From: an uncultured Gammaproteobacteria bacterium
GTDB lineage: Bacteria > Pseudomonadota > Gammaproteobacteria > GCF-002020875
Assembly: GCA_963981015.1 (NCBI GenBank)
Contig: CAXCCG010000002.1
Span: 8,291 to 72,290 of the forward strand
Length of the DNA: 64,000 nucleotides
Reading direction: 5' to 3'
Below the pieces are notes generated by a model. The model searched no databases, was not told where the DNA came from, and was given only the letters and a program-made list of their open reading frames with translations. Of this stretch, positions 27,270-60,361 are shown in pieces (the first letter of the stretch is position 1; the number at the start of each line of letters is the position of its first letter). The translations under genes and the position numbers were made by a program.

Positions 27270-27380
27270 TTCATACCCGTTACTTATGATCCCATCTCTC
27301 TATATTATCCCCCGGAGCCACACCTTATGTTAATTTAGAGGCTTGTCTAAGGTACCCCTGAACAAGTCATCTACGATATC

Positions 27381-28607
27381 TTATAAATTTTTAACAAACC
27401 AGCGTTTCATTCGTTCCCAGATACCGATTGATCCTCCATCCAGTAAGCCGCCATATTGCTGCCTGTTCTTCGCTGCATGAATCAGCAGCCCGACACCGGT
27501 TGCATGAACTGGAGTACGTACAATATCAATCATCCCCTCAATATTCTGTGGTGCCCCGAGACGGACCGGCTTATGGAAAATCTCCTCTGCCAGCTCAACC
27601 GCACCCTCCATCTTCGAGCTGCCACCGGTCAATACAATACCTGCATTGATCATATCCTCAAAGCCACTTCGGCGCAGTTCAGCCTGCACCAGGGTAAACA
27701 GCTCTTCATAACGGGGACCAACCACTTCTGCCAGCCCTTGTCGTGCCAATCTGCGTTCAGGGCGGTCCCCAATACTGGGAACAGCAACTTCTTCATTCGG
27801 GTCAACCAGTTCAGAAATCGCACAGGCATACTTCACCTTGATCTGTTCCGCATGGTGTGTCGGTGTACGCAGAAAGACTGCGATATCATTGGTTACCTGA
27901 TCACCCGCTACCGGAATCACCGCGGTATGGCGAATAGAACCTTCGGTAAAGACTGCAATATCGGTAGTCCCACCACCAATATCAATCATACAGACCCCCA
28001 GCTCTTTCTCATCTTCGCTCAGCACTGCATAGCTTGAGGCGAGTTGCTCCAGTACAACATCTTCTGCCTCCAGACCGCAAAGACGGATACATTTGACAAT
28101 ATTTTGCGCTGCACTGATTGAACCTGTGACAATATGGACCTTGGCCTCCAGACGGACCCCGGACATCCCCATCGGCTCATGGATCCCCTCCTGGTTATCA
28201 ATAATAAACTCCTGGGGGAGAGAGTGGATGATCTTCTGGTCTGCCGGTATAGCAATTGCTTTTGCCGCATCAATCACTCGATCTACATCGATGGCGGTCA
28301 CTTCCCGGGTACGGATCGCAATGATGCCGTGTGAATTCATGCCATGAATATGGCTGCCAGCGATACCCGCAGAGACCGATCCGATCTCACACTCCGCCAT
28401 TATCTCAGCCTCTTCTACTGCACGCTGAATCGACTTTACTGTCGATTCAATATTGACCACAACCCCCTTCTTCAGCCCTTTTGAAGGATGTGTTCCAATA
28501 CCCAGTATTTCCAGCTCGCCAGAGGGCTGCATAGCCCCAACAATGGCTGCAATTTTCGTAGTCCCGATATCAAGACCAACAATCAATTCATGCTCTTTTT
28601 TTCGCAT
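27381..28607 (-). CDS. ftsA: Cell division protein FtsA
   Basis: 408 aa, collinear with E. coli FtsA (LVVGLDIGT.K.AA.VG, GVCMIDIGGGTTDIAV, GIVLTGG). Confidence 0.93.
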   Translation of the reverse strand: MRKKEHELIVGLDIGTTKIAAIVGAMQPSGELEILGIGTHPSKGLKKGVVVNIESTVKSIQRAVEEAEIMAECEIGSVSAGIAGSHIHGMNSHGIIAIRTREVTAIDVDRVIDAAKAIAIPADQKIIHSLPQEFIIDNQEGIHEPMGMSGVRLEAKVHIVTGSISAAQNIVKCIRLCGLEAEDVVLEQLASSYAVLSEDEKELGVCMIDIGGGTTDIAVFTEGSIRHTAVIPVAGDQVTNDIAVFLRTPTHHAEQIKVKYACAISELVDPNEEVAVPSIGDRPERRLARQGLAEVVGPRYEELFTLVQAELRRSGFEDMINAGIVLTGGSSKMEGAVELAEEIFHKPVRLGAPQNIEGMIDIVRTPVHATGVGLLIHAAKNRQQYGGLLDGGSIGIWERMKRWFVKNL

Positions 28608-28612
28608 TGTAG

Positions 28613-29428
28613 CTACCCGTTACTCTGACCCTGCTGGTTGAGCTCTAAAACCATTCCCCGTTCATATCGAAGATCCACTTTTCTCACACCCCGGCTAAAC
28701 TTTGCCATTATAACCGGTGATTGCGCTGCCCACCTCGTTAATCGCTGCTCCATCCATCTCCTCCCCAGCTTTAATTCCAGCTCCCCGGCAAACAACAGAG
28801 TAATTGCTCCCCGTTGATCAACCTTCATCTCAATAATCTTGCCCTTCTCTTGCGGACTGTGCTGCCCCAGAATACTGGAGAAACGGGTAAGCTGCCGATA
28901 AATGGCCTCAGTATCCTCCAGCATCGAGTCGATACGGGGTAACTCTGCCTGGCCAAGCCCTACACCGGCAGACTCAAAAAACTCTCCACTCAGGTTCAGG
29001 TAGCCATCATCTCCCCATCGTGCAGCTGCGCGTTGCTCCTCTACCCAGACTTCGACTTGATCTGGCCACACCTTTCTCACCCGTGCCCGATAAACCCAGG
29101 ACTCCTCCTCAACCGCAATACGCAGCCTCTCCGGATCCAGAGCCAGCATTCCATCCTTACCATGCGCATCCACCAATTCACTGATTCTGGTGGGCTGAAT
29201 ATAGGTTGTTTTGCCTACCAGAATCACCTTTTTAACCATCACCGGATCTGGTGCGATGTGGGCTGTTTCAACCCAGTGCATTTGATCTTTCAGTGCAAAA
29301 ACAAGTATAGCCACTCCCAGCAAAACGGCAATGACCGCTACCCGTTTGACCAGGTACTTCTGCCGCATTTGTGCCTCACTCCTGGAGCGGTTGCGCCTCT
29401 CTTTACGTTTTCTGGGTGGCAATGGCAT
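28613..29428 (-). CDS. ftsQ: Cell division protein FtsQ
   Basis: 271 aa, N-terminal TM segment, POTRA/FtsQ C-terminus. Confidence 0.85.
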   Translation of the reverse strand: MPLPPRKRKERRNRSRSEAQMRQKYLVKRVAVIAVLLGVAILVFALKDQMHWVETAHIAPDPVMVKKVILVGKTTYIQPTRISELVDAHGKDGMLALDPERLRIAVEEESWVYRARVRKVWPDQVEVWVEEQRAAARWGDDGYLNLSGEFFESAGVGLGQAELPRIDSMLEDTEAIYRQLTRFSSILGQHSPQEKGKIIEMKVDQRGAITLLFAGELELKLGRRWMEQRLTRWAAQSPVIMAKFSRGVRKVDLRYERGMVLELNQQGQSNG

Positions 29429-29433
29429 GGTCT

Positions 29434-30369
29434 TCAGCTCAGCCGGATGATCTCAAGTAACAGTTCAGGAAAACCGAACCCTGCTGCCTTGGCGGCCATT
29501 GGCACTAAACTATGGTCTGTCATACCCGGTACCGTATTGACCTCCAGCAGCCAAGGTATACCTGCTTGATCCACCATCAGATCAACACGTCCCCAACCCC
29601 TGCAACCCAGGACCGTAAAGGCCTCCAGCGCAAGCTGCTGCAGGGCTGACTCTTCGACCTTACCCAATCCACAGGGACAGAGATATTCGGTACTCTCTGC
29701 CTGGTACTTGGCCTCAAAGTCATAAAAACCGTGCGGAGTTTTCAGTTGTATCGCCGGCAGTGCCCGCTCGCCAAGGATAGCCACCGTATACTCAGCACCC
29801 TCAATCCACTGTTCTGCAATTACCTCACCAGCATAACTTTTTGCCACATCCCATGCTTGCTGAAAGGTCTGCAGTGACTCTACTTTTACCATGCCAATAC
29901 TGGATCCTTCACAGACTGGCTTCACCATCAATGGTAGCCCCATCGCTTTAACAATCTCTTGCAGATCAGCGCCTTCACTCAACACCCGAAAATCTGGAGT
30001 TGGTAATTCAACCCCCTTCCAGAGCTGCTTTGTGCGTAACTTGTCCATTGCCAATGCAGATGCCATCACACCAGAGCCGGTATAGGGAAGCTTGAGTGTC
30101 TCCAATACACCCTGAATAACACCATCTTCTCCACCCCGCCCATGCAGCACCACAAAGGCGCGGTCAAACTCTAATAATGTTGAGATTTCACGCTCCGCCG
30201 GATCAAATGGAGCCGCATCACAACCTGCAGAGAGCAACCCCTGAAGCACCGCCTTTCCGCTATTGAGTGAGACCTCTCTCTCTGAGGCACTGCCCCCCAT
30301 CAATACAGCAATCTTTCCCAACGATTCAGGAGATTGTAGCTGATTCGAAAATTCATTCACGACAAACAC
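29434..30369 (-). CDS. ddl: D-alanine--D-alanine ligase
   Basis: 311 aa ATP-grasp fold, N-terminus KIAVLMGGSASEREVSL. Confidence 0.92.
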   Translation of the reverse strand: MFVVNEFSNQLQSPESLGKIAVLMGGSASEREVSLNSGKAVLQGLLSAGCDAAPFDPAEREISTLLEFDRAFVVLHGRGGEDGVIQGVLETLKLPYTGSGVMASALAMDKLRTKQLWKGVELPTPDFRVLSEGADLQEIVKAMGLPLMVKPVCEGSSIGMVKVESLQTFQQAWDVAKSYAGEVIAEQWIEGAEYTVAILGERALPAIQLKTPHGFYDFEAKYQAESTEYLCPCGLGKVEESALQQLALEAFTVLGCRGWGRVDLMVDQAGIPWLLEVNTVPGMTDHSLVPMAAKAAGFGFPELLLEIIRLS

Positions 30370-31256
30370 CTCTCGACTTGACCTACAATTCTAACCTCTC
30401 GCTGCAGACTTACCCCAAATTTCTGCTCAACCTCTTGTGCTACATGGTCCATCAGTGCCTCGATCTCCGTGGCTGTAGCCTCTCCCTGATGGATAATAAA
30501 ATTGGCATGCTGCTCTGAGACTCGTGCCCCCCCCAGGGTAAACCCTTTAAGTCCTGCGGCCTCGATCAAACGCCCGGCATGGTCCCCCTGTGGGTTTTTG
30601 AACACTGAACCACAACTATAGTATGACATTGGCTGGGTTGCGTTACGCTGTTTCAGCTGCTGCTGCATCTTTTCATGCGTCTCCTCACGGTCCAGGTTGG
30701 ACCTTTGAAAGATTGCTGAGAGAAACCAAAAGGGTGCCGTGTCATCAATACGAATAAGCGCTCGGTAGTTGGCCTGGAAACGGTCTGCCATCAATGTCTC
30801 CACTACACCACCACGATCCACCACTTCAACAGACTCTACCCGACTCCAGATCTCTTGACCAAAGGCTCCCGCATTCATCGCCAGTGCGCCACCCACAGAG
30901 CCCGGTATTCCTGCCAGAAAATCGAGGCCACGCCACTGTTCACTCCGAGCCACACGTGCCAGACGAGAAAGCGGGGCACCCGCCTCTGCATAGAGTCGAT
31001 CATTGTCACGCCATTCCAGCCGCTCCAGCGTATTTGCAAGCAGAATAACGGTACCCCGAAACCCTCCATCCCGTACCAGCAGATTACTTCCCTTACCCAC
31101 CCACAGCAGTGGCTCAGCTCCGGGAAGCTGCTGAAGGATCTCAACCAACTGTTGCCGGGTCTCCGGGATATAGAGTCGGTCTGCCACCCCTCCAACCCGC
31201 CAACTGGTATAAGGAGCCAGCGCTACATTCTCTAATCGTTGCGCCGTTGAATTCAC
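30357..31256 (-). CDS. murB: UDP-N-acetylenolpyruvoylglucosamine reductase
   Basis: 299 aa with an FAD-binding MurB domain. Confidence 0.9.
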
Positions 31257-32704
31257 TTCGATGGCCAGGTTTCAGAGATCTGTTGCGCTGCGGTGCCAAT
31301 ACTACCGGCCCCAGAGAGTAGCAGCAGATCGCCCTCCCCCACTTGATAGGGCAGCAGCTGCACAAGCTCATCAACACCCTTCACCAGCAGAGGATCTACC
31401 TCTCCACGGCTACGAATTGTTCTGGCCAGACTACGGCTGTCAGCTCCCGCAATCGGCTCCTCTCCAGCCGGATAAACCTCTAATAGCAACAGTTGGTCGG
31501 CGCTCGAGAGTACCTCCACAAAATCGTCATAGAGATCGCGGGTACGGCTATAGCGGTGTAGTTGAAAAGCAACCACCAGCCGACGTCCCGGCCACCCCTC
31601 TCTCAAAGCAGCCAACGTTGCAGCAACCTCTCTGGGATGGTGTCCATAGTCATCCACAACCTCGACTCCCCCTTTCGGGAACTGATACCAACCATAACGT
31701 TGAAAGCGCCGTGCAATCCCCTGAAAGCTGGCGAGTGCGGTCACCATTTTCTGGTCCTCAACCCCCAGATGGCTGGCAACCGCTATGGCTGCCAACGCAT
31801 TGAGAATATTGTGCCGCCCTGGCAGCTTCAGTGTCACCGGAAGTGGCGCTCGATCCGGCCGACGCAGCAGAAACTGACTCTCACCCTCATGCAACTCAAT
31901 CTGGTCTGCACCAAAATCAACTTCACTGGAGAATCCATAGCGCAGAACGGGACGGGAGAGCCTTTCGGTAATTCCACTGACTCCAGGGTCATCGACACAG
32001 AGTACCGCACAACCATAAAAGGGGAGGTGGTGGATAAACTCAACAAAAGTGTCTTCCAGTCGGGACCAATCCCCTCCATAGGTGGACATATGATCCTCAT
32101 CAATATTAGTCACCACCGCAACCATTGGCTGCAGATGAAGAAAGGAGGCATCACTCTCATCAGCCTCGGCAACCAGGTAACGCCCCCTACCCAACTGAGC
32201 GCCTCCGCTACGGGTCCCTCCCTCTTCACTACCACGGTTAATCTTGCCACCAATGACATAGGTGGGATCGAGACCAGCCTCTTCCAGTATGGTTGCCACC
32301 AGACTGGTGGTTGTGGTCTTGCCATGGGTACCTGCTACCGCAATGCCATAGCGAAAACGCATCAACTCAGCCAACATCTCTGCACGTGGAATGACTGGAA
32401 GCCCCTGCTGCCGCGCAGCAACAACCTCTGGATTCTCTTCACCAATTGCGCTGGAGATGACCACAACATCCACCCCCTCGATCTGCGCTGCACGATGCCC
32501 AATACAAATTTCAGCCCCTTCGCTACGCAACTCCTGAACCACCACCGATTCAGACTGGTCTGAACCACTGATCTCAAACCCCAGATTGAGGAGTAACTTG
32601 GCAATTCCATTCATCCCCGCTCCACCAATACCGATAAAGTGGATACGTTGTATGGTGTGCATCGCTTCAGCAATACCCTGTTGTTGTGAATCAATTATCA
32701 TCAA
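31253..32704 (-). CDS. murC: UDP-N-acetylmuramate--L-alanine ligase
   Basis: 483 aa with [15 protein letters not shown]. Confidence 0.93.
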
Positions 32705-32707
32705 TGG

Positions 32708-33814
32708 CTACTCTCTACAAAGCATTTTACAGATCTCTTTTACTTGGCGGGTGGCCTCTGGCTCTGCTGCAGCTTTGGCCGCTCGCCCCATCTGCTCTAT
32801 TCTATCGGGTTGTTCGATAAACTGGTTTACCCGCTGAATCAATTGATCACTGCTCAGCTCACGCTGTTGAACCATCTCAGCGGCCCCCTGCTGTTGCAAA
32901 AATGCACCATTGGCTGTCTGGTGATCATCAACAGCAAACGGGAACGGGATCAAAATTGAGGGGCGCCCTACCATGGCCAGCTCTGACACTGTCATCGCAC
33001 CAGATCGACAAAGCACCAGATCAGCCCAACGATAGACCTCATCTATCTGTTGTAAATAGGGAACTACACGCACCCCCTGTGACGCATCCACCGCTACACC
33101 TTGCTGCTGGTACCCCTCCAGCGTCGCTTGCAGATTACGCGCACCACTCTGATGAACAATCTCCAGCTTTCCCGCTGTAACCAACTCTTTCGCAACAATC
33201 GGCATCAGCTCATTGAGTCGCTGTGCCCCCAAACTCCCACCCAACACCAGTAATCTTAAAGGCTGGTGGGGTTGTGCTGGCTCTATCTCAAACAGCTCTT
33301 GTCGCACTGGATTGCCTACGGTACGGGCTGCCACAGTGGCTGGAAAAGTTGATGGGAAGGCCTCCAATGCCGCCGTAGCCAGTCGTGACAACCAACGGTT
33401 GGTTAATCCGGCAATGGCATTCTGCTCATGAATCACCAGTGGTTTTCGCATGAGCCATGACGCTACCCCTCCCGGCCCCGCCACAAAGCCTCCCATCCCC
33501 AACACAACATCCGGCTGCTGACGTGAAATTATTCGATAGGCCAACCAGATCGCCTTGAGCAGTCGCAATGGTGCAACGACCAACGCCTTAACCCCTTTAC
33601 CACGTATTCCCTGAACCGGAACTGTCTCTAGTTTAAACCCTGCTTGCGGCACCAGCGTTGACTCCATCCCTTCCGGTGTCCCGAGCCAGACAACCTCGCC
33701 CCCCTCATCTTGCCACATCCGGGCTACTGCCATAGCAGGATAGATATGCCCTCCGGTACCCCCGGCCATTACCATCAGCTTTTTCACAACCCTGCCTCTG
33801 CCGGATTGGAGCAT
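32708..33814 (-). CDS. murG: Undecaprenyl-PP-MurNAc-pentapeptide GlcNAc transferase
   Basis: LMVMAGGTGGHIYPAMAVA. The ORF extends to 33835, so the start codon is uncertain. Confidence 0.9.
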   Translation of the reverse strand: MLQSGRGRVVKKLMVMAGGTGGHIYPAMAVARMWQDEGGEVVWLGTPEGMESTLVPQAGFKLETVPVQGIRGKGVKALVVAPLRLLKAIWLAYRIISRQQPDVVLGMGGFVAGPGGVASWLMRKPLVIHEQNAIAGLTNRWLSRLATAALEAFPSTFPATVAARTVGNPVRQELFEIEPAQPHQPLRLLVLGGSLGAQRLNELMPIVAKELVTAGKLEIVHQSGARNLQATLEGYQQQGVAVDASQGVRVVPYLQQIDEVYRWADLVLCRSGAMTVSELAMVGRPSILIPFPFAVDDHQTANGAFLQQQGAAEMVQQRELSSDQLIQRVNQFIEQPDRIEQMGRAAKAAAEPEATRQVKEICKMLCRE

Positions 33815-33854
33815 AGGCTTGCCGATAAAAGCCATAGACAGCTTATTCTATCTC

Positions 33855-35069
33855 TCATCGGTTGCCCCTTCTTTTGCGCTCTACGATGGGTCCCACTTCA
33901 AATTCAATCCGCATCAGTAACGCAATGGCAATCATCATCACAATCAAACTGCTGCCTCCATAACTGACCAGTGGCAGTGTCAGCCCTTTGGTCGGAGCCA
34001 AATTGACATTCACCAATAGATTGATCAGCGCCTGTAATCCAATCCAGATCCCGATTCCGTACGCCAGATAGGAGGCGAAAGGTTGATGCCCTTCACTGGC
34101 CCTTGCTGCAATTTGGAAGGCTTTCCACACCACCAGAGAGAACAGTAGTACCACCGAGAGCGTACCAAACAGTCCGAGTTCCTCGGCAATCACCGCCAGA
34201 ATAAAATCAGTATGCGCTTCCGGAAGATAGAACAATTTCTGCAGCCCCTCTCCCAACCCTAGCCCCTGCCATCCACCCCGACCATAGGCAATCAGCGCCT
34301 GTGTTATCTGATAATTCTTCCCCTTGGGGTCGACCAAAAAGGGGTCATCACCCAGAAACGAGGCCATACGCGCCATACGAAATGGTTCCATCATGATGGC
34401 AATAGAGACGAATAGAACGCCCAACAGGATAAACAGTGCAAACTGAGATGGTTTCACCCCTCCCAGCCACATCATTCCAATCACCACGGTCATCATTACA
34501 AAGGCGGCACCCAGATCAGGCTCCACAAGAATCAGTACACTCACTCCGGCAAGCAGTGCAATGGGTCTGAGGACTGCCGCTAAGTCAGTTGAGACCTTAT
34601 CGCGATGACGCACCAGATAACTGGCCAGATAGAGATAAGCTGCCAGTTTGGTAAATTCAGAGGGCTGAAGACGGAACGGTCCAATCGGAATCCAGCGTGA
34701 AGCACCATTGACCTTAACCCCGACCAATAATACCAATACCAGCAGCACGGCACTGCCCAGCAGTAGCGCCGGTGACATCTTCTCCCACAGGTGTAACGGG
34801 ATCTGCAACACTATCAGCCCCAGCAGAAAACCCAGGGTCGCAAAGATGAGTTGTCGGGTCAGATAGTGAAACGGGTCGTGATACAACCTCTCTGCAATCG
34901 GCATGGATGCCGAGGCAACCATCACCAGTCCAAACAGTAGCAGCGTCATCACCACAGGAAGTAACGCTGATTGATAGACAGAGCGGCTGATACTGCGCCC
35001 ACCGGCTGTCTGCCGCTTTTTAGCCTCGCCACTCTTTGCCCATACAAACCACTCTTGTAGAAACTTCAT
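33855..35069 (-). CDS. ftsW: Peptidoglycan glycosyltransferase FtsW (SEDS)
   Basis: 404 aa polytopic protein of the SEDS family. Position between murD and murG. Confidence 0.88.
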   Translation of the reverse strand: MKFLQEWFVWAKSGEAKKRQTAGGRSISRSVYQSALLPVVMTLLLFGLVMVASASMPIAERLYHDPFHYLTRQLIFATLGFLLGLIVLQIPLHLWEKMSPALLLGSAVLLVLVLLVGVKVNGASRWIPIGPFRLQPSEFTKLAAYLYLASYLVRHRDKVSTDLAAVLRPIALLAGVSVLILVEPDLGAAFVMMTVVIGMMWLGGVKPSQFALFILLGVLFVSIAIMMEPFRMARMASFLGDDPFLVDPKGKNYQITQALIAYGRGGWQGLGLGEGLQKLFYLPEAHTDFILAVIAEELGLFGTLSVVLLFSLVVWKAFQIAARASEGHQPFASYLAYGIGIWIGLQALINLLVNVNLAPTKGLTLPLVSYGGSSLIVMMIAIALLMRIEFEVGPIVERKRRGNR

Positions 35070-36469
35070 CTCACCACCTTTTGTAGCCGTTTCTGTACTG
35101 CCTGCTTATAGGCATCGCCTCGCGCCTCAAAGCCGGAGAATTGATCAAAACTGGCGCATGCCGGGGAGAGCAATATGGTATCACCCGGTTCGGCAATCCT
35201 GTTTGCTGTAACCACAGCCTCTTCCATCGTTGCTACATGATAGACCGGGGTGACTCCCCCCAGTGCTGACTCAATCAATTTGGCATCTTCACCCATCAAA
35301 ATAACACTACGTACATAATCTTTAACAAGCACTTTCAGGGGGGAGAAATCGGCCTCTTTTCCCTGACCACCGGCAATCAATACCAGCTTGTTTAAATGGT
35401 CTGGACGGCCAAGTCCTTTGATTGCTGCTTCGGTGGCCCCCACATTGGTTCCCTTGGAGTCATTGATCCACCGCACACCCCGGCTCTCTGCCACCCACTC
35501 CGTTCTGTGAGGCAACCCTGAAAATTGTTGTAGCGCCGCCACCATTGCAGCAAGAGGTACCCCGGCAGCCTCTGCCAGGGTCATTGCAGCGACAACATTG
35601 GTTACATTATGTGTCCCAAAAATCTGTAGCTCTGAGACAGCAATTAAGGGCTGCTCTCCCTGACAGATCCACACTGCACCAGACAGATCTTTACAGAGCC
35701 CAAACCACCCAGGTTTAACTGGTGTAGTGGAGTAATAAGGGGACAACTGTTGTGGCTGTGGTGTAATTGCCAAGGACTCCATTAGTGCGACAACAGCCTC
35801 ATCCTCTGCTGGATAGACCCAATGCACTGCGCGCAGATAAACTTGCCCTTTCACTTGCGCATAGTGTTGCAGGCTACGATAGCGGTCCAGATGGTCGGCC
35901 GAGATATTGAGTACCACTGCCGCTACTGGCTCCAGCGTCTGAATCGACTCCAGTTGAAAGCTGGAGAGTTCAAGCACATAGAGGTCGGGCTCTTCATGCT
36001 TTAGCAATTCCAGTGCAGGGGTTCCCAGATTCCCCCCGACACGGACCTTCAACCCCGCTGAGTTCGCCATCTCTCCAACCAGTGTGGTTACGGTACTCTT
36101 GCCATTGGAGCCGGTAATTGCAACTACTGGCGCCTTCGCCTGCCGCGCAAACAGCTCCACATCACCAACCACTTCAACACCCGCCTCAAGCGCCTGCTGC
36201 AACAGTGGATGATCGATAGAGATTCCCGGACTCAATACAATTTGTGCTACCGAGCAGAGCAGTGTCTGCTCTAAAGGACCCAGAACAATTTCCAGTTGGG
36301 GGAACTCACGCCGGATCTGCTCCAACCCCGGCGGGTGAGCACGCGTATCGGCAACAACACAAGGAATATTGTGTTCTGAAAAATAGCGCACAACCGACTG
36401 ACCACTCTTACCCAGCCCCAACACCAGTCTCTGTGGTCTGTTATTGCCAATAGCCGACACTGTACTCAC
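35066..36469 (-). CDS. murD: UDP-N-acetylmuramoylalanine--D-glutamate ligase
   Basis: 467 aa with GLGKSGQS. Confidence 0.92.
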   Translation of the reverse strand: MSTVSAIGNNRPQRLVLGLGKSGQSVVRYFSEHNIPCVVADTRAHPPGLEQIRREFPQLEIVLGPLEQTLLCSVAQIVLSPGISIDHPLLQQALEAGVEVVGDVELFARQAKAPVVAITGSNGKSTVTTLVGEMANSAGLKVRVGGNLGTPALELLKHEEPDLYVLELSSFQLESIQTLEPVAAVVLNISADHLDRYRSLQHYAQVKGQVYLRAVHWVYPAEDEAVVALMESLAITPQPQQLSPYYSTTPVKPGWFGLCKDLSGAVWICQGEQPLIAVSELQIFGTHNVTNVVAAMTLAEAAGVPLAAMVAALQQFSGLPHRTEWVAESRGVRWINDSKGTNVGATEAAIKGLGRPDHLNKLVLIAGGQGKEADFSPLKVLVKDYVRSVILMGEDAKLIESALGGVTPVYHVATMEEAVVTANRIAEPGDTILLSPACASFDQFSGFEARGDAYKQAVQKRLQKVVR

Positions 36470-36541
36470 TACCGGGAGCCTCTAAAAATAGTAATTTTTC
36501 TGTGGCAGCAATCGCTGAAAAAGTGCATTTTCAGAGGTGCT

Positions 36542-37624
36542 CTACCGTATTTTCAGGGTTGCCAACCCTACCAGCACCAGAATAAAGGTAATAATCCAGA
36601 AGCGGACAATGACCCTTGGCTCAGGCCACCCTTTCAGCTCAAAGTGGTGGTGTATCGGGGCCATACGAAAAACCCGTTTACCCGTCAGTTTAAACGACAG
36701 TACCTGAATCATCACCGAGACGGTTTCCAGTACAAAGATCCCCCCCATGATGACCAACACCAACTCTTGACGTACCAGTACCGCAACAATCCCCAGAGCA
36801 GCCCCGAGAGCCAATGCGCCAACATCCCCCATAAAGACCATTGCCGGATAGGCATTAAACCAGAGAAAACCAAGTCCTGCACCGACCAGTGCACCACAGA
36901 ATACCGCCAACTCTCCGGCCTCCGGTAGAGAGGGAATTGCCAGGTAGCGGGCAAACTCCACATGGCCACTGAGATAAGCAAAGACCCCTAGCGCCCCTCC
37001 TACCAATACCGTTGGCATGATCGCAAGACCATCCAGTCCATCGGTCAGGTTCACCGCATTACTTGAACCCACCACCACCAGGAATGCCAACGGCAGATAG
37101 AGTATCCCCAGATCAATCGTTACCTCTTTAAAGAAGGGAACCAACAGTGCCGTCTCTGCCGGTAGGGTCGCAGAGTAATAGATCCAACTCACTGCAACTG
37201 CTGCAACCAGAGATTGTCCCAGAAACTTGGCCTTTGCAGAGAGTCCTTTGGGATTCTGGTGGACCACTTTTCGGTAATCGTCAATCCAGCCCACCATTCC
37301 AAACCCCAAGGTGACCAGCAACACAATCCAGAGGTAGTGGTTACTCAAATCTCCCCACAACAGTGTAGCAATAGCCACTGCAACCAGTATCAGCGCTCCA
37401 CCCATGGTTGGCGTTCCCGCCTTCTTCAGATGAGTCTCCGGACCGTCATCTCGTATCGCCTGCCCCACTTTATACTGAGTCAACTTGCGGATCATCATCG
37501 GTCCAATCATAAAGGAGACGATGAGTGCTGTCAGCGCACCCAATATCGCCCGTAACGTCAAATAACGAAACACCGAAAAATGGGGTGAAATTTCCACTAG
37601 GTAATCACTGAGATAGAGCATCAT
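36542..37624 (-). CDS. mraY: Phospho-N-acetylmuramoyl-pentapeptide transferase
   Basis: N-terminus [26 protein letters not shown] matches the MraY N-terminus. Start trimmed from the ORF (37711). Confidence 0.92.
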
Positions 37625-37652
37625 GATGTTTCTGATTCCTGATAATTTATGG

Positions 37653-39041
37653 CTATTGATTCTGTACGGACGCCGTAGTGTCACCCTGATCCAACAGATG
37701 GTTGACCACACGTTCCATTCTCATAAAGCGTGAACCCTTGACCAGAATGGTGGTATCGCGACCTAACTCAAGGTCCAACTGTTCCAGAAGAGCTTCAAGA
37801 GTTACATGAGCCACCCCTCCTCCAAATCCTGCAACAAAGTCACCACCAAACTCCCCAAAGGCAAAAAGCTTGTCGATCCCAACCTTTTGGGCAAGCTGTC
37901 CTACCTCTTGATGCAGGGATGCTGCTGCCTCTCCTAACTCCCCCATATCCCCCAAGACCAATACCCGTTTTCCCGGAAAGTCAGAGAGCAGGCGAACCCC
38001 GCTTTTCATTGAGTCCGGATTGGCATTGTAACTATCATCAATCACCGTGCTGCCCAACCGGGCAGCCATCTGTTGCAATCGACCTGCAACCGGTTGCAGC
38101 GACTCCAACCCCTGTTTGACTTGTATCAACGAAGCCCCCACCTCGAGCGCAAGTGCCGCTGCTGCCACTGCATTGGTACGATTGTGTTCACCCAATAGTT
38201 TTAGCTGTACGGAGACCTCATCTCCCTGATAAGACAACAGCAACGGAGCTTTAGCTGTATCTGCAGAAAGTAACTCTGAGTTAGCGACTCTAGTGGTTGC
38301 ATAGCGCGCTATACGTTTTCCCTCTGCCAACTTCATCCAAAGTGAAGCCTGAGGGAGATTCTGGTTGATCACTGCAGTGCCGTTACCCCTCAACCCTGTA
38401 TAGATCTCTCCCTTTGCCTGTGCGATTCGCTCCATTGAACCAAATCCACCCAGATGGGCTGCCCCTATATTATTGACCAGGGCATGGGTCGGCTGGGCCA
38501 GTTTACACAGGTATTCAATATCCCCAACTGCACTGGCCCCCATCTCAACCACGGCCCACCGATCTTGAGGGGTCAACCGCAACAGTGTCAATGGAACCCC
38601 AATCTCATTATTGAAATTACCCTGGGTCACAGTCCCTTGCCCCGCCAAATGCAGTATAGATGCCACCATCTCTTTTACAGTGGTCTTTCCATTGCTTCCG
38701 GTGATTGCAACCACCGGTATCTCAAACTGTGCCCGCCACCCAGCCGCCAACTGCCCCAGTGCCTGTAACGTATCTCCAACCACAATCTGGGGGATGTCGA
38801 ACGGTTTTTGTTGTTGAACAATCGCCCCAACCGCTCCTGCAGCATGTACCTGTTGCAGAAACTGTTCACCCTCAAAGTTGGGACCTCTCAAAGCGACAAA
38901 CAGCGCACCAGATGAAATGGAACGGCTGTCTGTACTGACCGCTGAAAAGCTGGCATCTTCTCCGATGAGCCGCCCCCCCAACAGTGTTGCAACGGCAGAG
39001 AGACAACTCAGTGGGCGTTGATCAGCCACGGCTATCACCAT
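37653..39041 (-). CDS. murF: UDP-MurNAc-tripeptide--D-alanyl-D-alanine ligase
   Basis: 462 aa Mur ligase (GSNGKTT). Confidence 0.9.
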
Positions 39042-40530
39042 CCATTACCAATGATCGTGCAATCATGCGATCACTCAAGGCAATCTTCTCTTCCCCGATC
39101 CATTGAAACTGCTCATGCCCCTTACCTGCAATCAGGATCACATCCTCTGCTGCCGCCTGCTGGTAACAGTGATGAATCGCGGCTTCGCGATCTTCAATCA
39201 CAGTGACCTCTTTGGGCTCTTTAACCCCTTTAAGGATCTGTTGAAGGATCTGGGCGGCCAACTCCCGACGAGGGTTGTCATTGGTGAGCACCACCTGATC
39301 TGCCAGCTGCTCTGCCACACGTCCCATCGCAGCCCGCTTTCCTTGATCACGCTCCCCTCCACAACCAAACAGAACCCATAACCTGCTACTCGGCTCCACA
39401 TTCTGCAAGTGCTCTCTGACAGCGCTCAGGGCAGACTCCAAGGCCCCTGCAGTATGGGCATAATCAACCATCAATAGTGGCTTGCACCCTGAACTATCAC
39501 GAAATGTTTCCATTCGCCCATCCACCGCCTGAACCTGTCCCAACAGATGACAAATATGATTCAGCGAATAACCCCAACTGAGCAGCGTTGCAACCACTGC
39601 CAGCAGGTTACTACCATTAAAACGTCCGTAAAGTGGTGAGTGAATCTCTCCCTGCTCTTCCCGAAAGCGGATATTGAGCACCAGCCCTTCCCTGTTCTGT
39701 TCAACCACCTCGCCCATCAACTCTGCCCGCTCATCACCACTCAGACTATAACCCAACACCTCTATTCCGCTGCGTGGGTCAACATAGAGTTCTGTACCCA
39801 GCGTGTCATCTAGGTTGACCACTATTGACTGTAGTTCCGGGCGGTAAAAAAGCTTTTTTTTAGTTGCACGGTAGTGTTCAAGTGAACCATGGTAATCAAG
39901 GTGATCTCGCCCAATCTGGGTCAAGATTGCGGTATCAATCGAAACTGCGGAGAGACGCTGCTGTTCAATACCATGTGAAGATGCCTCCAATGCAACACTT
40001 TTCCCCGATTGCTTGACCACTTCAGCAAGCAGTTTATGCAGCTCAATTACAGGAGGTGTGGTATGGCTGAGTTCTGTATCAAACTCTACTCCACCAACCA
40101 TTCTGTTACCGAGTGTTCCGAACAGTGCCGCCCCCCCTTCGAGCCTCTCCATTGCAGCTGAAAGAAAGTGGGCCACTGAACTTTTTCCATCGGTTCCGGT
40201 AACTGCCGCCACCCGCAGTTGACGCGAGGGATCTCCATAGAAGCGACTTGCAATTTCACCTAGCTGTCTCTTCAACGAAGAGAGCTGGATTGCACAATCA
40301 CTTTGCAAGCTCCCCTGTTCCCACAGTACCGCAATCGCACCTTGATCAATGGCTTGTTGTGCATAGTCCACCCCATTCACAGTTCCACCGTCGAGTGCCA
40401 CAAAAAGGGTACCCGCCTTTACGGTTCGACTGTCTGTGGTTATTCCCTCGACTGTCTGTCTATCGAGCGGTTGCGGGACCGTTACAATTCCCTCCAGCAG
40501 GGCACCCAATGTCCACTTTCTATTACCCAT
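39022..40530 (-). CDS. murE: UDP-MurNAc-L-Ala-D-Glu--2,6-diaminopimelate ligase
   Basis: 502 aa Mur ligase (GTDGKSS). Confidence 0.9.
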   Translation of the reverse strand: MGNRKWTLGALLEGIVTVPQPLDRQTVEGITTDSRTVKAGTLFVALDGGTVNGVDYAQQAIDQGAIAVLWEQGSLQSDCAIQLSSLKRQLGEIASRFYGDPSRQLRVAAVTGTDGKSSVAHFLSAAMERLEGGAALFGTLGNRMVGGVEFDTELSHTTPPVIELHKLLAEVVKQSGKSVALEASSHGIEQQRLSAVSIDTAILTQIGRDHLDYHGSLEHYRATKKKLFYRPELQSIVVNLDDTLGTELYVDPRSGIEVLGYSLSGDERAELMGEVVEQNREGLVLNIRFREEQGEIHSPLYGRFNGSNLLAVVATLLSWGYSLNHICHLLGQVQAVDGRMETFRDSSGCKPLLMVDYAHTAGALESALSAVREHLQNVEPSSRLWVLFGCGGERDQGKRAAMGRVAEQLADQVVLTNDNPRRELAAQILQQILKGVKEPKEVTVIEDREAAIHHCYQQAAAEDVILIAGKGHEQFQWIGEEKIALSDRMIARSLVMDGDSRG

Positions 40531-42256
40531 GAGAGGCGCTCTTGAGGTCGTCTGTCACTTCAGGGGGGATCCCCAGTACACGCAGAGCCCCACCCATCAC
40601 CTCCGAGAATACCGGTGCCGCAACTGCACCGCCGGTGTAATACTTCCCCTTTGGACCATCCACCACCACCACCACTACGACTCTAGGATCTTCCACTGGT
40701 GCCATCCCTGCAAACAGGGCTGTGTGCCCAAAAGGCTTACCATCTGCATCGGCATATCGTCCACCAACCAGCTTGTCGACGGTTCCTGTTTTTCCTGCAA
40801 CACGATACTCTTTCACCCGCGCACGGCGGGCCGTTCCCCCCTCCTGTGTCACCTTCTCCATCATCAAGCGTACATCTTTTGCGGTCTTCGCCGAGAACAC
40901 CCGACGTGATTCCTGGTCTCTCTCCGCCTCTTCACTCTGTAAAAAGGTGATCGGACGAATCATGCCATCTTCTGCAATCGCTGTGTAGGCTCTTGCCAAT
41001 TGTAGTGGCGTCATACTCATGCCATAACCATAGGAGAGCGTAGCCTGTTCAACTTTACGCCAGCGGGCATAATCTCTCAAAACGCCGGTACCCTCACCTG
41101 GAAAGGTACTACCAGTCTCCTCTCCGATACCCGCCAGATCGAGTACTCGCCAAAACTGTTGCGGTTTCATCATCAGGGCAACCATTGCAGAACCGACATT
41201 GCTTGATTTCTGCAGCAGCCTGGCCATGTTTACCTCTTTATAGTTGTGATTTCTGAACTCCCGAATGGTCTTACGCCCCACTCGCAGCGTTCCAGGAGAG
41301 GTATCAATTGTTGTGCTGGTAGTCACAATACCGTTTTCCATTGCTGCTGCCACAGTGAAGGGTTTCATGGTGGAGCCCGGCTCCAGCAGATCTGTGACTG
41401 CACGGTTGCGTAACGCTCCCCCTTTACGCTGTGCAAGATCATTCGGGTTAAAGGAGGGAAGACTGACCATTGCCAATATCTCACTACGATCCGAGTCCAG
41501 CACCACTACGGTGCCCGATTCCGCATCAAACTCCTTCAGTGCCCTGTTCAAGGATCGATAGGCAAGAAACTGCAGGCGTCGGTCGAGTGTCAAATGGAGA
41601 CGTTTTCCCTCCTCTCCACGCTCAATCAAACTCAGCGTCTCAATTGATTTACCAACCGCATCACGCACCACACGTACCTGTTCCGGTTTTCCATCAAGCC
41701 AACTATCGTAGGCCAGCTCTACCCCCTCTTGTCCCACATCCTGCTGATTGGTAAATCCGATCATTGAGGCCATTGCCTCCCCTTCCGGATAGAAGCGGCG
41801 ACTGCCACGACGAAACTCAACACCCTTAATTTTTAATGCTGCGATCTTCTGTTTGGTCTCGGGTTCTACCTGTTTTTTAAGCGGTATATAGCGTTTATCC
41901 TCATACCGCTCCAATTTTTTTTTCAACCAGCGGTCCGTCTTACCCAGCAATTTAGCGAGAGCTGCGCGCTTCTCTACAGAGTCCGGGAATTTTTGCGGAT
42001 TACACCCAACAGTCACCATCGGTGTACTCAGTGCCAAAACCTCACCCGTACGATCAACAATCTCTCCGCGCCGTGCCGGAATCAACATCTTGCCAATATG
42101 CTGTTTGACCCTGTACGGCAATTTTGCACTGATCTCTTCGGGAAAAAGGTGCAGCATCATCGCTCGCCAGACCACAGCAGCTGCACCTGCTGCAAGCAGA
42201 GCAATCACAACCCGCTTACGCCACGGAGTATCCCCAGTAACGGCTTGGCGCTGCAT
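40523..42256 (-). CDS. ftsI: Peptidoglycan D,D-transpeptidase FtsI (PBP3)
   Basis: 577 aa with STMK, SSN and KTG motifs. Confidence 0.92.
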   Translation of the reverse strand: MQRQAVTGDTPWRKRVVIALLAAGAAAVVWRAMMLHLFPEEISAKLPYRVKQHIGKMLIPARRGEIVDRTGEVLALSTPMVTVGCNPQKFPDSVEKRAALAKLLGKTDRWLKKKLERYEDKRYIPLKKQVEPETKQKIAALKIKGVEFRRGSRRFYPEGEAMASMIGFTNQQDVGQEGVELAYDSWLDGKPEQVRVVRDAVGKSIETLSLIERGEEGKRLHLTLDRRLQFLAYRSLNRALKEFDAESGTVVVLDSDRSEILAMVSLPSFNPNDLAQRKGGALRNRAVTDLLEPGSTMKPFTVAAAMENGIVTTSTTIDTSPGTLRVGRKTIREFRNHNYKEVNMARLLQKSSNVGSAMVALMMKPQQFWRVLDLAGIGEETGSTFPGEGTGVLRDYARWRKVEQATLSYGYGMSMTPLQLARAYTAIAEDGMIRPITFLQSEEAERDQESRRVFSAKTAKDVRLMMEKVTQEGGTARRARVKEYRVAGKTGTVDKLVGGRYADADGKPFGHTALFAGMAPVEDPRVVVVVVVDGPKGKYYTGGAVAAPVFSEVMGGALRVLGIPPEVTDDLKSASHG

Positions 42257-42546
42257 CAGTGAAGCACAACTCTCTGGGCTGCTTGCGGATAGTTCATTTT
42301 TAATTTAGCACGTGCATGGTCCTCTATTCGGGCCAGATTCCCCCAAGATGCCTCTTCCAGACGCAGTCGCCCCTGCTCTTCCAAACTCTGCTCATACTGT
42401 TTCTTGAGTCCCTGTAACGTAATGTAGAGCTGGACCTCTCGATGTTTAATGTAGATCACTCCAACAGCACTGCCTACGGTAAAAAGAATCAATAGCATTA
42501 TTAAGACCCCCTGCATCAAAGGACTATTTTCATACCAGACACTCAT
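42256..42546 (-). CDS. ftsL: Cell division protein FtsL
   Basis: 96 aa bitopic protein with a coiled-coil segment, between rsmH and ftsI. Confidence 0.75.
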   Translation of the reverse strand: MSVWYENSPLMQGVLIMLLILFTVGSAVGVIYIKHREVQLYITLQGLKKQYEQSLEEQGRLRLEEASWGNLARIEDHARAKLKMNYPQAAQRVVLH

Positions 42547-43520
42547 GGCTGGAACCGTTTATCGATATTGCTGGTAGTTCGCTCAGCCACTCTTAATACT
42601 GCGCTTCTTGAGCGCGGATTCAGATCGATCTCCTCTGCCGTGGCGCGCTGTCGCTTGCCGACTGTTTGCAACACCCCCTGTTGCGGTTGTCCGCGAATAG
42701 GAATTTCGGGTGGCAGCTCCTGTTGCCCACCACTATTGCGACGAAAAAACTGTTTGACCATACGATCTTCAAGAGAATGAAAACTGATCACCACGACTCT
42801 TCCTCCCGCGGATAACAGAGAAAGGCTCTGCTCCAGAGCCTGTTTCAGCTCTTGTAACTCCTGATTGATATGTATTCTGATTGCCTGAAAGGTTCGGGTG
42901 GCCGGATGCTTTTTATGGTAACCGGGGATTACCCGTTGCACCAATTCTGCGAGCTGTGAAGTAGTAACCAAAGGGATCTCATCACGTGAGTGGATAATTG
43001 CACGCGCTATCTTTCTGGATTGACGCTCATCACCGTACTCCCATAAAACACGGGCAATCTCATCCTGCTCCGCACAGCGCAGCCACTCCGCCGCGGTTAA
43101 TGGCTGAGACTGGTCCATTCTCATATCAAGTGGCCCTTGGCGCATGAAACTGAAGCCACGATCCGCATGGTCCAACTGAGGGGAAGAGACCCCCAAATCC
43201 AGGAGATAACCATCCAGCTTTCGAGTCAGCCCCATTTCTGTCAGCACCTCAGGCAACTTTGAAAAGGGGTTATGGGTGATCACCACACGTGGATCTGCTG
43301 CATATAGCCGTTGAGCCTCAGTGATTGCATCCTGATCACGGTCCATCAAGAGTAATTTGCCTTGTGGCGAGAGCTGTTTAATGATTTCTGCCGTATGCCC
43401 CCCCCGCCCAAAGGTGCCATCAACATAAAAACCATCTTCTTTTATTTTAAGACCCGTTACCGCTTCACCAAGCATCACCGAGAAGTGAGCCGATAACGGG
43501 TCCGAATCAGAAGTAGACAT
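42543..43520 (-). CDS. rsmH: 16S rRNA (cytosine1402-N4)-methyltransferase RsmH (MraW)
   Basis: 325 aa with HIPVMLGE-like N-terminus, GRGGHT and DLG.SS motifs. Confidence 0.92.
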   Translation of the reverse strand: MSTSDSDPLSAHFSVMLGEAVTGLKIKEDGFYVDGTFGRGGHTAEIIKQLSPQGKLLLMDRDQDAITEAQRLYAADPRVVITHNPFSKLPEVLTEMGLTRKLDGYLLDLGVSSPQLDHADRGFSFMRQGPLDMRMDQSQPLTAAEWLRCAEQDEIARVLWEYGDERQSRKIARAIIHSRDEIPLVTTSQLAELVQRVIPGYHKKHPATRTFQAIRIHINQELQELKQALEQSLSLLSAGGRVVVISFHSLEDRMVKQFFRRNSGGQQELPPEIPIRGQPQQGVLQTVGKRQRATAEEIDLNPRSRSAVLRVAERTTSNIDKRFQP

Positions 43521-43944
43521 CCTGCAACTGCGTCAGGTCATCTTCACTCAGCTCTTCAGGTTGTGAAACATCAACCCAAGCTGCATCATCCCATAGCTCC
43601 AACTTAAACCCCACACCGGCTAGTACGGCCACTTTATCCAGTTTTGCATGATCACGAAGCTCCTGGCTCAACAAAATTCTTCCATTGCTATCCATTTCAC
43701 ACTCTTGTGAGCGTCCGATCACGACACGGCGCAGTTTGGATTGTTGACTACCCGGCAATAAACCAATTTTTGTCTCCACATCTTCCCACTCCGGCAAGGG
43801 ATAGAGATCCAGGCAGGGGGAACGAAAATTGGGGGCAACCACAACCTTTCCATCAGAGGCACCCAACAACTGAGAGCGATAGTGGGTCGGAATTGAAACC
43901 CGTCCCTTACCATCCATTTTGACTGATTTGTTTCCTCGAAACAT
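43507..43944 (-). CDS. mraZ: Transcriptional regulator MraZ
   Basis: 145 aa, N-terminus MFRGNKSVKMDGKGRVSIPT. Confidence 0.9.
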   Translation of the reverse strand: MFRGNKSVKMDGKGRVSIPTHYRSQLLGASDGKVVVAPNFRSPCLDLYPLPEWEDVETKIGLLPGSQQSKLRRVVIGRSQECEMDSNGRILLSQELRDHAKLDKVAVLAGVGFKLELWDDAAWVDVSQPEELSEDDLTQLQDVYF

Positions 43945-43965
43945 GGGTCAGCCCATAACCCGCAG

Positions 43966-45204
43966 TTAGTTAGCCTGACTTCGTAAAAAGGCGGGGATAT
44001 CGAGAAACTCCTCATCCAGCCCAGAGGCTGATGCACTGTTTACACCCGCCGCCCCATGCATTTGAGTCTCTTGTCTCTGAAAGGTAGGACGGTCCAGATC
44101 ACCACTCACTCTAGGTTGCTGAGGCATGTAGTCATCTGTACGTGGCATCTCCACTTCGACCAAAACAGGTTTTGGTCGTGGGTTTGCTTGCTCTGCAGCA
44201 ATGCTGTTCAACCCCGTTGCCACAACCGTAACACGGATCTCATCATTCATTGAAGCATCAAAACCTGCTCCAATCACAATGGTTGCGTCTTCAGAAGCGT
44301 ACTGACGTACCGCTGTTCCCACCTCATTAAACTGCCCCATGGTCAAGTCATAGCCGGAGGTGACATTGACCAGAATGCCGCGTGCACCGCGCAGGTCAAT
44401 ATCCTCCAGTAGCGGGCTGTGGAGCGCGATATCAGCAGCAATTGACGCACGATTCTCACCTGTGGCTGAGCCGGTACCCATCATTGCCATTCCCATCTCA
44501 GACATTACCGTTTTTACATCAGCAAAATCCACATTGATCATTCCCTCTCGGGTAATCAACTCAGCGATTCCCTGCACAGCACCTCGCAATACACCATCTG
44601 CCTCGCGGAACGCATCCATCACGGTCATGTCTGCACCAAAAACCGTCATTAATTTTTCATTTGGAATGGTAATAATAGAATCGACATGTTGACTCAACTC
44701 ATCAATTCCATCCAAAGCAACACTCATACGCTTTGGGCCTTCCATGGAAAATGGCTTGGTCACGACCGCTACTGTCAAGATCCCCATCTCTTTAGCAACT
44801 TCCGCAACGACCGGGGCCGCCCCGGTTCCTGTGCCACCACCCATTCCGGCTGTAATAAAGAGCATCTCTGTGCCTTCTATCGCCTCACGAATACGTTCCC
44901 GATCCTCTAGTGCAGAGTCTCGTCCAACGGTCGGCTTTGCACCGGCTCCACGACCACGTGTAGTCTGAACACCAATCTGTATTGCCGTGCTGGCAGAGGA
45001 TTTACCCAATGCCTGTGCATCGGTATTTGCACAGATGAAATCAACTCCCTCAATTTCAGAAGCAACCATATGTTCCAAGGCGTTACCACCTGCTCCCCCC
45101 ACTCCGATAACACGAATAATTGCGTTATCAGCATATGAATCGACTATTTCTTCAAACATATCTCTCCCTCGGCTTACTGGATTATTATAACCACTAGTCT
45201 CCAA
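43966..45204 (-). CDS. ftsZ: Cell division GTPase FtsZ, in a non-canonical position immediately upstream of mraZ
   Basis: 412 aa with GGGTGTG (GMGGGTGTGAAPVVAEVAKEMGILTVAVVTKPF), NTDAQAL and NVDFADV motifs, collinear with E. coli FtsZ. Its stop codon lies 21 nt upstream of the mraZ start. Confidence 0.96.
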   Translation of the reverse strand: METSGYNNPVSRGRDMFEEIVDSYADNAIIRVIGVGGAGGNALEHMVASEIEGVDFICANTDAQALGKSSASTAIQIGVQTTRGRGAGAKPTVGRDSALEDRERIREAIEGTEMLFITAGMGGGTGTGAAPVVAEVAKEMGILTVAVVTKPFSMEGPKRMSVALDGIDELSQHVDSIITIPNEKLMTVFGADMTVMDAFREADGVLRGAVQGIAELITREGMINVDFADVKTVMSEMGMAMMGTGSATGENRASIAADIALHSPLLEDIDLRGARGILVNVTSGYDLTMGQFNEVGTAVRQYASEDATIVIGAGFDASMNDEIRVTVVATGLNSIAAEQANPRPKPVLVEVEMPRTDDYMPQQPRVSGDLDRPTFQRQETQMHGAAGVNSASASGLDEEFLDIPAFLRSQAN

Positions 45205-45557: not shown

Positions 45558-45610
45558 AAACAAGGTTGTCGGAGTACAAATACTCAAACATATTGTATGG
45601 AGAATTAAAA

Positions 45611-45962: not shown

Positions 45963-45979
45963 CAGCGCAGGAGAATAAC

Positions 45980-55118: not shown

Positions 55119-55144
55119 GCGATGAATTGACGGTAATCTGTGCG

Positions 55145-60359: not shown

Positions 60360-60361
60360 CC

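Follow-up and report, generated by a model that had tools for sequence, protein, structure and literature searches.

A dcw gene cluster with ftsZ at its head, ahead of mraZ, in a clade of uncultured Gammaproteobacteria that includes Candidatus Thiopontia

The gene cluster for cell wall and division (dcw) ranks among those most conserved in order in bacteria, and a location of ftsZ behind ftsA comes close to being a rule (PMC8871954). The dcw cluster described here belongs to an uncultured gammaproteobacterium of the GTDB lineage GCF-002020875 and was found in a stretch of 64,000 nucleotides (assembly GCA_963981015.1, contig CAXCCG010000002.1, positions 8,291 to 72,290; hereafter the window), the minus strand of which reads rsmI, rnpB, ftsZ, mraZ, rsmH, ftsL, ftsI, murE, murF, mraY, murD, ftsW, murG, murC, murB, ddl, ftsQ, ftsA. 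The reading preferred here, to which a probability of roughly three in four is assigned as a whole, is that ftsZ was relocated ahead of mraZ and is now the first gene of a MraZ-repressed operon.

The canonical dcw cluster of E. coli and Pseudomonas resembles that of the window in having the same 16 genes on one strand, with an unchanged relative order for 15 of them; the neighbours upstream, rsmI and rnpB, are shared with Pseudomonas-type genomes, direct GTGG(G) repeats with a 10-bp period lie next to a sigma-70 promoter in the canonical cluster as they do, putatively, here, and lpxC and secA are retained behind the cluster in Thiopontia. Unlike the canonical cluster, that of the clade has ftsZ first rather than last, between the putative operator and mraZ, which is not promoter-proximal; ftsZ is beyond the reach of promoters in ddl, ftsQ and ftsA; and the lineage of the window has no lpxC at the 3' end. 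The nearest functional analogue is the reduced mraZ-mraW-(ftsA-like)-ftsZ operon of the Mollicutes, in which ftsZ likewise belongs to a short unit transcribed from a promoter with MraZ boxes and the level of FtsZ is tied to MraZ (PMC12957436; PMC8475190), but that operon arose by loss of intervening genes and has mraZ first and ftsZ last, whereas the cluster of this clade is complete and has ftsZ ahead of mraZ. The dispersed or truncated clusters of Cyanobacteria (which have an ftsQ-ftsZ doublet) and of Chlamydiae and Planctomycetes (which have no ftsZ) also lack an ftsZ gene after ftsA (PMC8871954), but through break-up or gene loss, whereas ftsZ of this clade stays within an intact cluster, at the opposite end, behind the cluster's own promoter. 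The UpsM leader of Rhodobacter sphaeroides is comparable as a regulatory change between the main promoter and the first gene (PMC5089854; PMC8266604), but the element inserted there is a noncoding leader and small RNA rather than a coding gene such as ftsZ. A full-text search, in which the main dcw survey was not covered, found no published account of ftsZ upstream of mraZ, in keeping with the preliminary description of this DNA, which knew of none for a gammaproteobacterium; a prior mention is possible, and the order is implicitly visible in public annotations of metagenome-assembled genomes (MAGs).

The 16 genes of the dcw set (mraZ to ftsA, plus ftsZ) are contiguous and co-oriented on the minus strand within 27381-45159, according to NCBIfam and Pfam models. 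The first gene of the cluster is ftsZ (43966..45159, 397 aa; NCBIfam TIGR00065), followed after a spacer of 21 nt (43945..43965) by mraZ (43507..43944, 145 aa; TIGR00242, 122 bits), then by the thirteen genes from rsmH (42543-43520) to ftsQ (28613-29428), which occupy 28613..43520 in canonical order, and lastly by ftsA (27381..28607; TIGR01174, 500.5 bits). FtsI, MurE, MurF, MraY, MurD, FtsW, MurG, MurC, MurB and Ddl were all named by NCBIfam models, and FtsL is supported by Pfam, on contigs identical to the window. The conserved order and strand of mraZ to ftsA given in the preliminary description are borne out by these models and the list of open reading frames: the relative order is canonical for 15 of the 16 genes, and the departure from the canonical layout, in which mraZ is first and ftsQ-ftsA-ftsZ are last, is that ftsZ precedes mraZ and ftsA ends the cluster. 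Upstream of the cluster, rnpB, encoding a class A RNase P RNA (45610..45962, minus strand; Rfam RF00010, 328.4 bits, full length), was located by blastn between rsmI and ftsZ in all loci of the clade, and rsmI, encoding the 16S rRNA C1402 2'-O-methyltransferase (45980..46825, minus strand; TIGR00096, 268.9 bits), is a conserved neighbour with the same place in all relatives.

The ftsZ gene has the features expected of a bona fide orthologue. Its product matches the FtsZ equivalog model over the full length (407.6 bits versus a curated cutoff of 295.2), contains the nucleotide-binding signature GGGTGTG (read from the sequence as GMGGGTGTGAAP), and has the anchor-binding peptide DIPAFLR near its C-terminus (...EFLDIPAFLRSQAN). 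The gene had at first been taken to extend over 43966..45204, which is the maximal open reading frame from a TTG codon; the conserved start is instead the ATG at 45159, which stands behind the sequence GAGGGAG and aligns with the start in every relative. A tblastn search of the 64-kb window with FtsZ matched only 43969-45159 and nothing after ftsA, where the former site of ftsZ, the 111 nt that separate ftsA from the gene behind it (27270..27380), holds no remnant. It can therefore be upheld that this is a genuine ftsZ gene between rnpB and mraZ, the sole copy in the window, with its stop codon 21 nt from the mraZ ATG.

The source of the window being a MAG, the preliminary description raised the possibility of a chimeric assembly, in which misassembly of a metagenome bin would have joined ftsZ to rnpB and mraZ. 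The index of the assembly collection lists the exact FtsZ protein in 352 blocks, and all 24 of the contigs carrying it that were read have the neighbourhood rsmI, ftsZ, mraZ, rsmH, ftsL, ftsI, murE, with identical junctions; they span different archives and assemblers, and include a 73-kb ENA MEGAHIT contig and an NCBI contig (JABHXJ010000158.1 of GCA_018657305.1). The accession numbers of two other NCBI assemblies agree with this order, FtsZ HIJ21996 and MurD HIJ22004 being eight steps apart in one, and FtsA MBC8519900 and FtsZ MBC8519915 being 15 steps apart in the MAG of Candidatus Thiopontia autotrophica, as predicted if ftsZ is at the head. Base composition is smooth over both junctions of the window, the regulatory block 5' of ftsZ is conserved, and the same order is found in at least nine further lineages with FtsZ proteins of 74-83% identity. 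A chimera was rejected on the agreement of 24 of 24 contigs and ten FtsZ lineages, its probability being negligible. The arrangement is solid as a genomic fact, is moderately surprising to a specialist, and represents a rare natural rewiring of an order-conserved cluster.

Comparison with relatives, which the preliminary description had proposed, indicates that the head position of ftsZ, far from being peculiar to this genome, is a derived trait that a whole clade shares. Ten FtsZ lineages, 74-100% identical to FtsZ of the window and including Candidatus Thiopontia, have the order rsmI-rnpB-ftsZ-mraZ, which continues into rsmH in at least nine lineages besides that of the window. Homologues of this FtsZ form a tight group of 73-87% identity, separated by a gap from those of Methylophaga and others at 65% or less, and the head order was found in every member of the tight group with readable context except one (P0018): it was found with P0021 (256 blocks, labelled 'Thiotrichales bacterium') and with P0016, P0015, P0011, P0006 and P0003, and also in six JGI metagenome contigs that were found by MraZ alignment. 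The metagenome scan with the MraZ alignment of the clade returned 28 loci, whereas a scan with a single MraZ protein returned no relatives. The exceptional member, P0018 (locus L086, FtsZ 73% identical), represents a sister lineage that keeps the order murB-ddl-ftsQ-ftsA-ftsZ, followed by convergent genes. In a neighbor-joining tree of FtsZ, a distance tree without support values, the ten lineages with ftsZ at the head are monophyletic, P0018 is their immediate sister, and Methylophaga is next. Among the matches listed from a scan of GTDB, relatives had FtsZ identities of 63% or less (the clade itself was reached through the protein collection), and of these 80 other species representatives, all 79 gammaproteobacterial loci with an upstream flank had ftsZ directly after ftsA; in outgroups with 40% MraZ identity, rnpB is directly followed by mraZ. 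Because the sister lineage, the 79 other loci and the outgroups are canonical and the lineages with ftsZ at the head are monophyletic, the gene orders and the tree indicate that the head position is derived and arose once. The tree likewise indicates that ftsZ at the head is the vertical orthologue of the canonical ftsZ that follows ftsA.

What lies behind ftsA was compared across the clade. A single 64.7-kb JGI contig (L127) carries the complete cluster, with rsmI, ftsZ, mraZ through ftsQ, ftsA, lpxC and secA, and the same neighbours of this locus recur in 24 contigs. Because L127 otherwise has the canonical layout, ending in ftsA-lpxC-secA, ftsZ is the only gene that moved, lifted from between ftsA and lpxC and placed before mraZ. 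In a second lineage (P0021), the head and tail of the cluster are on one contig without ftsZ after ftsA, which is followed by convergent genes for sigma-54 regulators; in another lineage, ftsA is followed by DUF1451-leuS-lptE-holA. In the window, ftsA is followed by a gene pair and then by DUF1451, leuS, lptE and holA. The pair consists of a gene for a 569-aa protein (25560-27269, minus strand), with an N-terminal receiver (REC) domain and TPR repeats but no DNA-binding output, and a gene for a 204-aa protein (24943-25557, minus strand), with only a HATPase_c domain, which has weak similarity to histidine kinases and no sensor or membrane part; both were assigned with Pfam and NCBIfam. To call them a two-component pair was thus roughly right, but the pair is atypical, and it is a lineage-specific filling, as relatives have no such pair after ftsA. 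Between ftsA and the pair lies a promoter-like site (TTAACA-18-GATAAT, 27333-27304).

The absence of lpxC noted in the preliminary description is true of the 64-kb window, where tblastn with five LpxC proteins from canonical loci gave no match and the gammaproteobacterial lpxC-secA 3' flank is missing, but it is not part of the same event: because L127, a relative of Thiopontia, has lpxC-secA directly 3' of ftsA in a locus with ftsZ at the head, the loss in the window is attributed to a separate, later event. In the sister lineage (L086), the spacer between ftsA and ftsZ is unusually long (318 nt, L086:7683-8000) and A-rich, and ftsZ is followed not by lpxC but by convergent genes and valS. 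Because this cluster, with its canonical ftsA-ftsZ order, is also without lpxC after ftsZ, instability at the 3' end of the cluster must predate the ftsZ move or roughly coincide with it.

Paralogues of ftsZ occur in some bacteria, and the window covers just 64 kb of a genome that is incomplete, so that the copy at the head could in principle be an extra paralogue or a horizontally acquired gene, with the real ftsA-ftsZ(-lpxC) locus elsewhere. Against this, no ftsA was seen outside this cluster, and the one within it has no ftsZ behind it; in Thiopontia, lpxC is directly 3' of ftsA on a contig that has ftsZ at the head; in the tree, the gene at the head is joined first by the sister lineage's canonical ftsZ and next by Methylophaga, as expected of vertical descent; its product has the full set of FtsZ features; and searches for homologues gave one FtsZ series and one FtsA series for the clade. 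A duplicate or xenologous ftsZ was rejected as very improbable on the basis of the tblastn search of the window, the ftsA-lpxC order of L127 and the FtsZ tree.

The putative promoter of the cluster (45213..45240, minus strand) has a -35 hexamer TTGATA (45240-45235) and a -10 hexamer TATAGT (45218-45213) separated by 16 nt, resembling the Pmra promoter of mraZ in canonical clusters. It is the best sigma-70-like site in the interval 43400-46000, with 10 of 12 consensus positions, and the TTGA of its -35 hexamer and the entire TATAGT are conserved in all ten lineages. Further upstream, 3' of rnpB, a consensus scan identified a putative terminator-like hairpin (45477..45495, minus strand). Superimposed on the promoter is a putative MraZ operator (45190..45234, minus strand) of five direct (G/T)TGG boxes: TTGGG (45234-45230), GTGGC (45224-45220), GTGGG (45214-45210), TTGGA (45204-45200) and GTGGT (45194-45190). 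The array, TTGGG aaaaa GTGGC gtata GTGGG ttttt TTGGA gacta GTGGT, has an exact 10-bp period, overlaps the promoter spacer, the -10 hexamer and the start region, and lies 31-75 nt 5' of the ftsZ ATG; patterns of four and three boxes, for which the chance expectations in the window are 0.01 and 0.08, respectively, each match only there. Throughout the ten lineages, a block of approximately 55 nt is nearly invariant between sequences that cannot be aligned on either side. Nine of the clade's ten loci (12-64 kb) have a strict three-box array, sought on either strand, at this position only, 52-92 nt before the ftsZ ATG, and L098 has a degenerate copy at the same site. The sole array of the outgroups lies 75-145 nt before the mraZ ATG, and none was found in the ftsA-ftsZ region of the sister lineage L086. 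The fifth box is directly followed by a perfect TATAAT (45185-45190, minus strand), with GATAAT in its place in L095; the remaining lineages do not conserve it, and it may serve as a second -10 element in particular lineages.

GTGG repeats with a 10-bp period in Pmra bind MraZ and are required for repression (bioRxiv 10.1101/2022.02.09.479790; PMC12957436; PMC8475190, citing Eraso 2014). In E. coli (NC_000913.3, from which the boxes were read), the corresponding leader has the sequence GTGGG aaatt GTGGG gcaaa GTGGG and lies 38 nt 5' of mraZ. In the window the array is not immediately 5' of mraZ, the 1194-nt ftsZ gene lying in between; the preliminary description correctly placed ftsZ between rnpB and mraZ, but ftsZ did not take over the interval that holds Pmra and the MraZ operator, having been inserted 3' of a putative operator that persists upstream. 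The DNA-binding motif of MraZ is defined by two DXXXR elements (bioRxiv 10.1101/2022.02.09.479790), which correspond to D11-R15 and D85-R89 in the clade; both are conserved, the second alone being covered by every row of the alignment (the L088 row is N-terminally truncated). The conserved repeats could instead bind some other factor or act as an RNA leader element, as two boxes of the five start with T in place of G and binding of MraZ to them is a prediction, but the 10-bp period and the GTGG/TGGG core are the same as in the E. coli boxes and the published repeats, outgroups of canonical order have an equivalent array 5' of mraZ, and the array is unique in each locus of a clade in which mraZ is intact with both DXXXR motifs. 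An identity other than a MraZ operator is therefore considered quite unlikely.

The genes of the E. coli dcw cluster have promoters inside upstream coding regions, so that mraZ and the genes downstream might have their own promoter, and perhaps an operator, in the 3' part of ftsZ, leaving ftsZ as a separate transcription unit; the preliminary description had suggested a scan of 43966-44200 for MraZ boxes and promoters. No array, coding-strand promoter-like site or conserved noncoding block was found there, and on the basis of these scans the idea of boxes or a promoter in that part of ftsZ was rejected. Scans with the sigma-70 consensus identified no coding-strand promoter-like site within 43945-45200, and a consensus scan identified no terminator-like site after ftsZ; apart from the site 5' of ftsZ, no (G/T)TGG array was found in the window or in any locus of the clade; and clade comparison of the last 270 nt of ftsZ, which encode a variable linker, showed indels and no conserved block of DNA. 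The 21-nt spacer between ftsZ and mraZ in the window contains no promoter, operator or terminator, and although L090 has a spacer of 145 nt, which is in favour of an internal promoter, the other nine lineages have nonconserved spacers of 16-43 nt. Separate transcription of mraZ is accordingly judged unlikely, though less so than the alternatives already discussed. Of the two possibilities previously offered, that mraZ is transcribed from within ftsZ or through it, the scans favour reading through ftsZ, since no promoter-like site was found inside.

Translation signals also distinguish ftsZ from mraZ. The Shine-Dalgarno sequence of ftsZ (GAGGGAG, 45164..45170, minus strand) has a predicted anti-Shine-Dalgarno pairing energy of -8.5 kcal/mol, the strongest of the 16 genes of the cluster, although the energies of some distal genes were calculated from maximal open reading frame starts and are approximate only; the range for ftsZ in all ten lineages is -7.7 to -8.5 kcal/mol. 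The Shine-Dalgarno sequence of mraZ is weak (-3.8 kcal/mol in the window and -0.5 to -5.9 kcal/mol over the lineages). Thus, ftsZ is predicted to be the best-translated gene of the operon. Because GAGGGAG resembles the leaders of canonical gammaproteobacterial ftsZ genes, which have the same kind of Shine-Dalgarno sequence, its presence suggests that ftsZ moved together with its own ribosome-binding site. Fusion of the Pmra leader to ftsZ exactly at a shared ATGTT start is less likely given the ftsZ-type Shine-Dalgarno sequence, which is not conclusive.

Relocation of ftsZ to the head of a MraZ-repressed operon would have proceeded as follows. A cassette of approximately 1.2 kb, comprising ftsZ and its strong ribosome-binding site, would have left the interval between ftsA and lpxC in the ancestor shared by Candidatus Thiopontia and its relatives, and been inserted between Pmra, with its MraZ operator, and mraZ, either by cut-and-paste or by tandem duplication of mraZ to ftsZ followed by two deletions. 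A single transcript from Pmra would then carry ftsZ first, the 21-nt spacer, mraZ, rsmH, ftsL, ftsI and so on to ftsA. MraZ would be made from the second cistron with low efficiency, and would bind the five boxes over the -35, -10 and +1 region, repressing the transcript that encodes both itself and FtsZ. Synthesis of FtsZ would thereby come under direct negative feedback by MraZ, would gain from the promoter-proximal position, and would not depend on the promoters within ddl, ftsQ and ftsA; position in the operon and Shine-Dalgarno strength would set the FtsZ:FtsA ratio. In the lineage of the window, a second, independent rearrangement would have exchanged lpxC-secA after ftsA for the REC-TPR/kinase-like pair.

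Several points weigh against this model, in addition to the approximate pairing energies of the distal genes. Co-transcription, the start site, binding and repression by MraZ and the physiological effect are all read from sequence. The source genomes being MAGs, a second ftsZ might in principle be present elsewhere in the genome, and weak, nonconsensus or non-sigma-70 promoters may exist inside ftsZ, or in the 145-nt spacer of L090. The sign of MraZ regulation may differ, though the boxes here overlap the core promoter: overexpression of MraZ in Mycoplasma gallisepticum was associated with increased FtsZ (PMC8475190).

What the relocation would mean for regulation follows from the position of ftsZ. 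In clusters of the E. coli type, the promoters located inside ddl, ftsQ and ftsA buffer ftsZ against Pmra; such buffering is impossible here because ftsZ is no longer behind these genes, and it was rightly recognized from the outset that promoters of the ftsQAZ type could not serve an ftsZ gene located upstream of them, at the head. The physiological role of MraZ in E. coli is unclear, and its deletion gives no phenotype. A tentative extension of the model, held at somewhat less than even odds, is that in this clade the MraZ autoregulatory loop directly determines the abundance of FtsZ, making MraZ the primary controller of Z-ring supply and hence of division timing or cell size.

The arrangement predicts a regulatory logic different from the canonical one, with FtsZ under direct feedback from MraZ. 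If the model is true, the clade is a natural experiment on the frozen order of the dcw cluster and on the role of MraZ, and linkage of ftsA to ftsZ and the internal promoters of ftsZ are dispensable once ftsZ has a promoter-proximal slot. Ecologically abundant sulfur oxidizers keep the whole cluster, yet have shifted its most important and abundant product from last to first, which is a stable counter-example for ideas that tie the gene order to assembly order, stoichiometry or cell shape. The design could be copied into E. coli or Pseudomonas to probe the purpose of the canonical order, and the rearrangement, as a clean synapomorphy, is usable as a marker of the clade.

Candidatus Thiopontia autotrophica, which NCBI places in Gammaproteobacteria incertae sedis, was linked to the clade by the names of protein clusters. 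FtsZ of L127 is 95% identical to that of Thiopontia, and FtsZ of the window is 79% identical to it, so that the window probably derives from another genus of the same family. Thiopontia corresponds to the BS-GSO2 clade of sulfur oxidizers, which are abundant at euxinic interfaces in oxygen-deficient seas (PMC8359478); it is a member of GCF-002020875, an uncultured GTDB order and family of hypoxic saline waters (bioRxiv 10.1101/2023.04.03.535450).

Other variations were observed among the related loci. Two contigs with identical FtsZ (P0021) differ in their upstream flanks: L085 has a gene similar to LppC/LpoA (L085:3603-5492) between a YraN-like gene and rsmI that is a point of difference from L083, and its RsmI is 47% identical to that of the window, versus 67% for L083, which suggests recombination or strain mosaicism around rsmI. 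In L090 (FtsZ P0015), murE and murF are fused in a single open reading frame of 942 aa, and a 188-aa open reading frame and a DUF4160/DUF2442 pair are inserted between murF and mraY (L090:12774-17158); because of this fusion and these insertions, it can be said that the dcw cluster tolerates other changes in this group. L086 has a DUF2442/DUF4160 pair nearby and an extra 207-aa open reading frame between murC and murB. A distant metagenome contig (L120:5450-8608) has mraZ-rsmH with an FtsZ-like match (31% identity) approximately 1.2 kb 3' of rsmH, a much-shortened cluster reminiscent of the Mollicutes.

Elsewhere the window consists of housekeeping DNA of an ordinary kind. An ABC transporter for type I secretion, of the LssB type (56215-58302, plus strand), is followed by a TolC-family protein of 674 aa (58335-60359, minus strand) and two tandem proteins with FlgO domains (62035-63437, minus strand), and several small open reading frames without family matches are within 56215-63826. 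The cytochrome bc1 operon is adjoined by a gene for a homologue of N-acetylglutaminylglutamine amidotransferase (TIGR03104, 936 bits), beside which is encoded a 296-aa protein with a C-terminal SPOR domain, which binds septal peptidoglycan (both within 53334-56035, minus strand).

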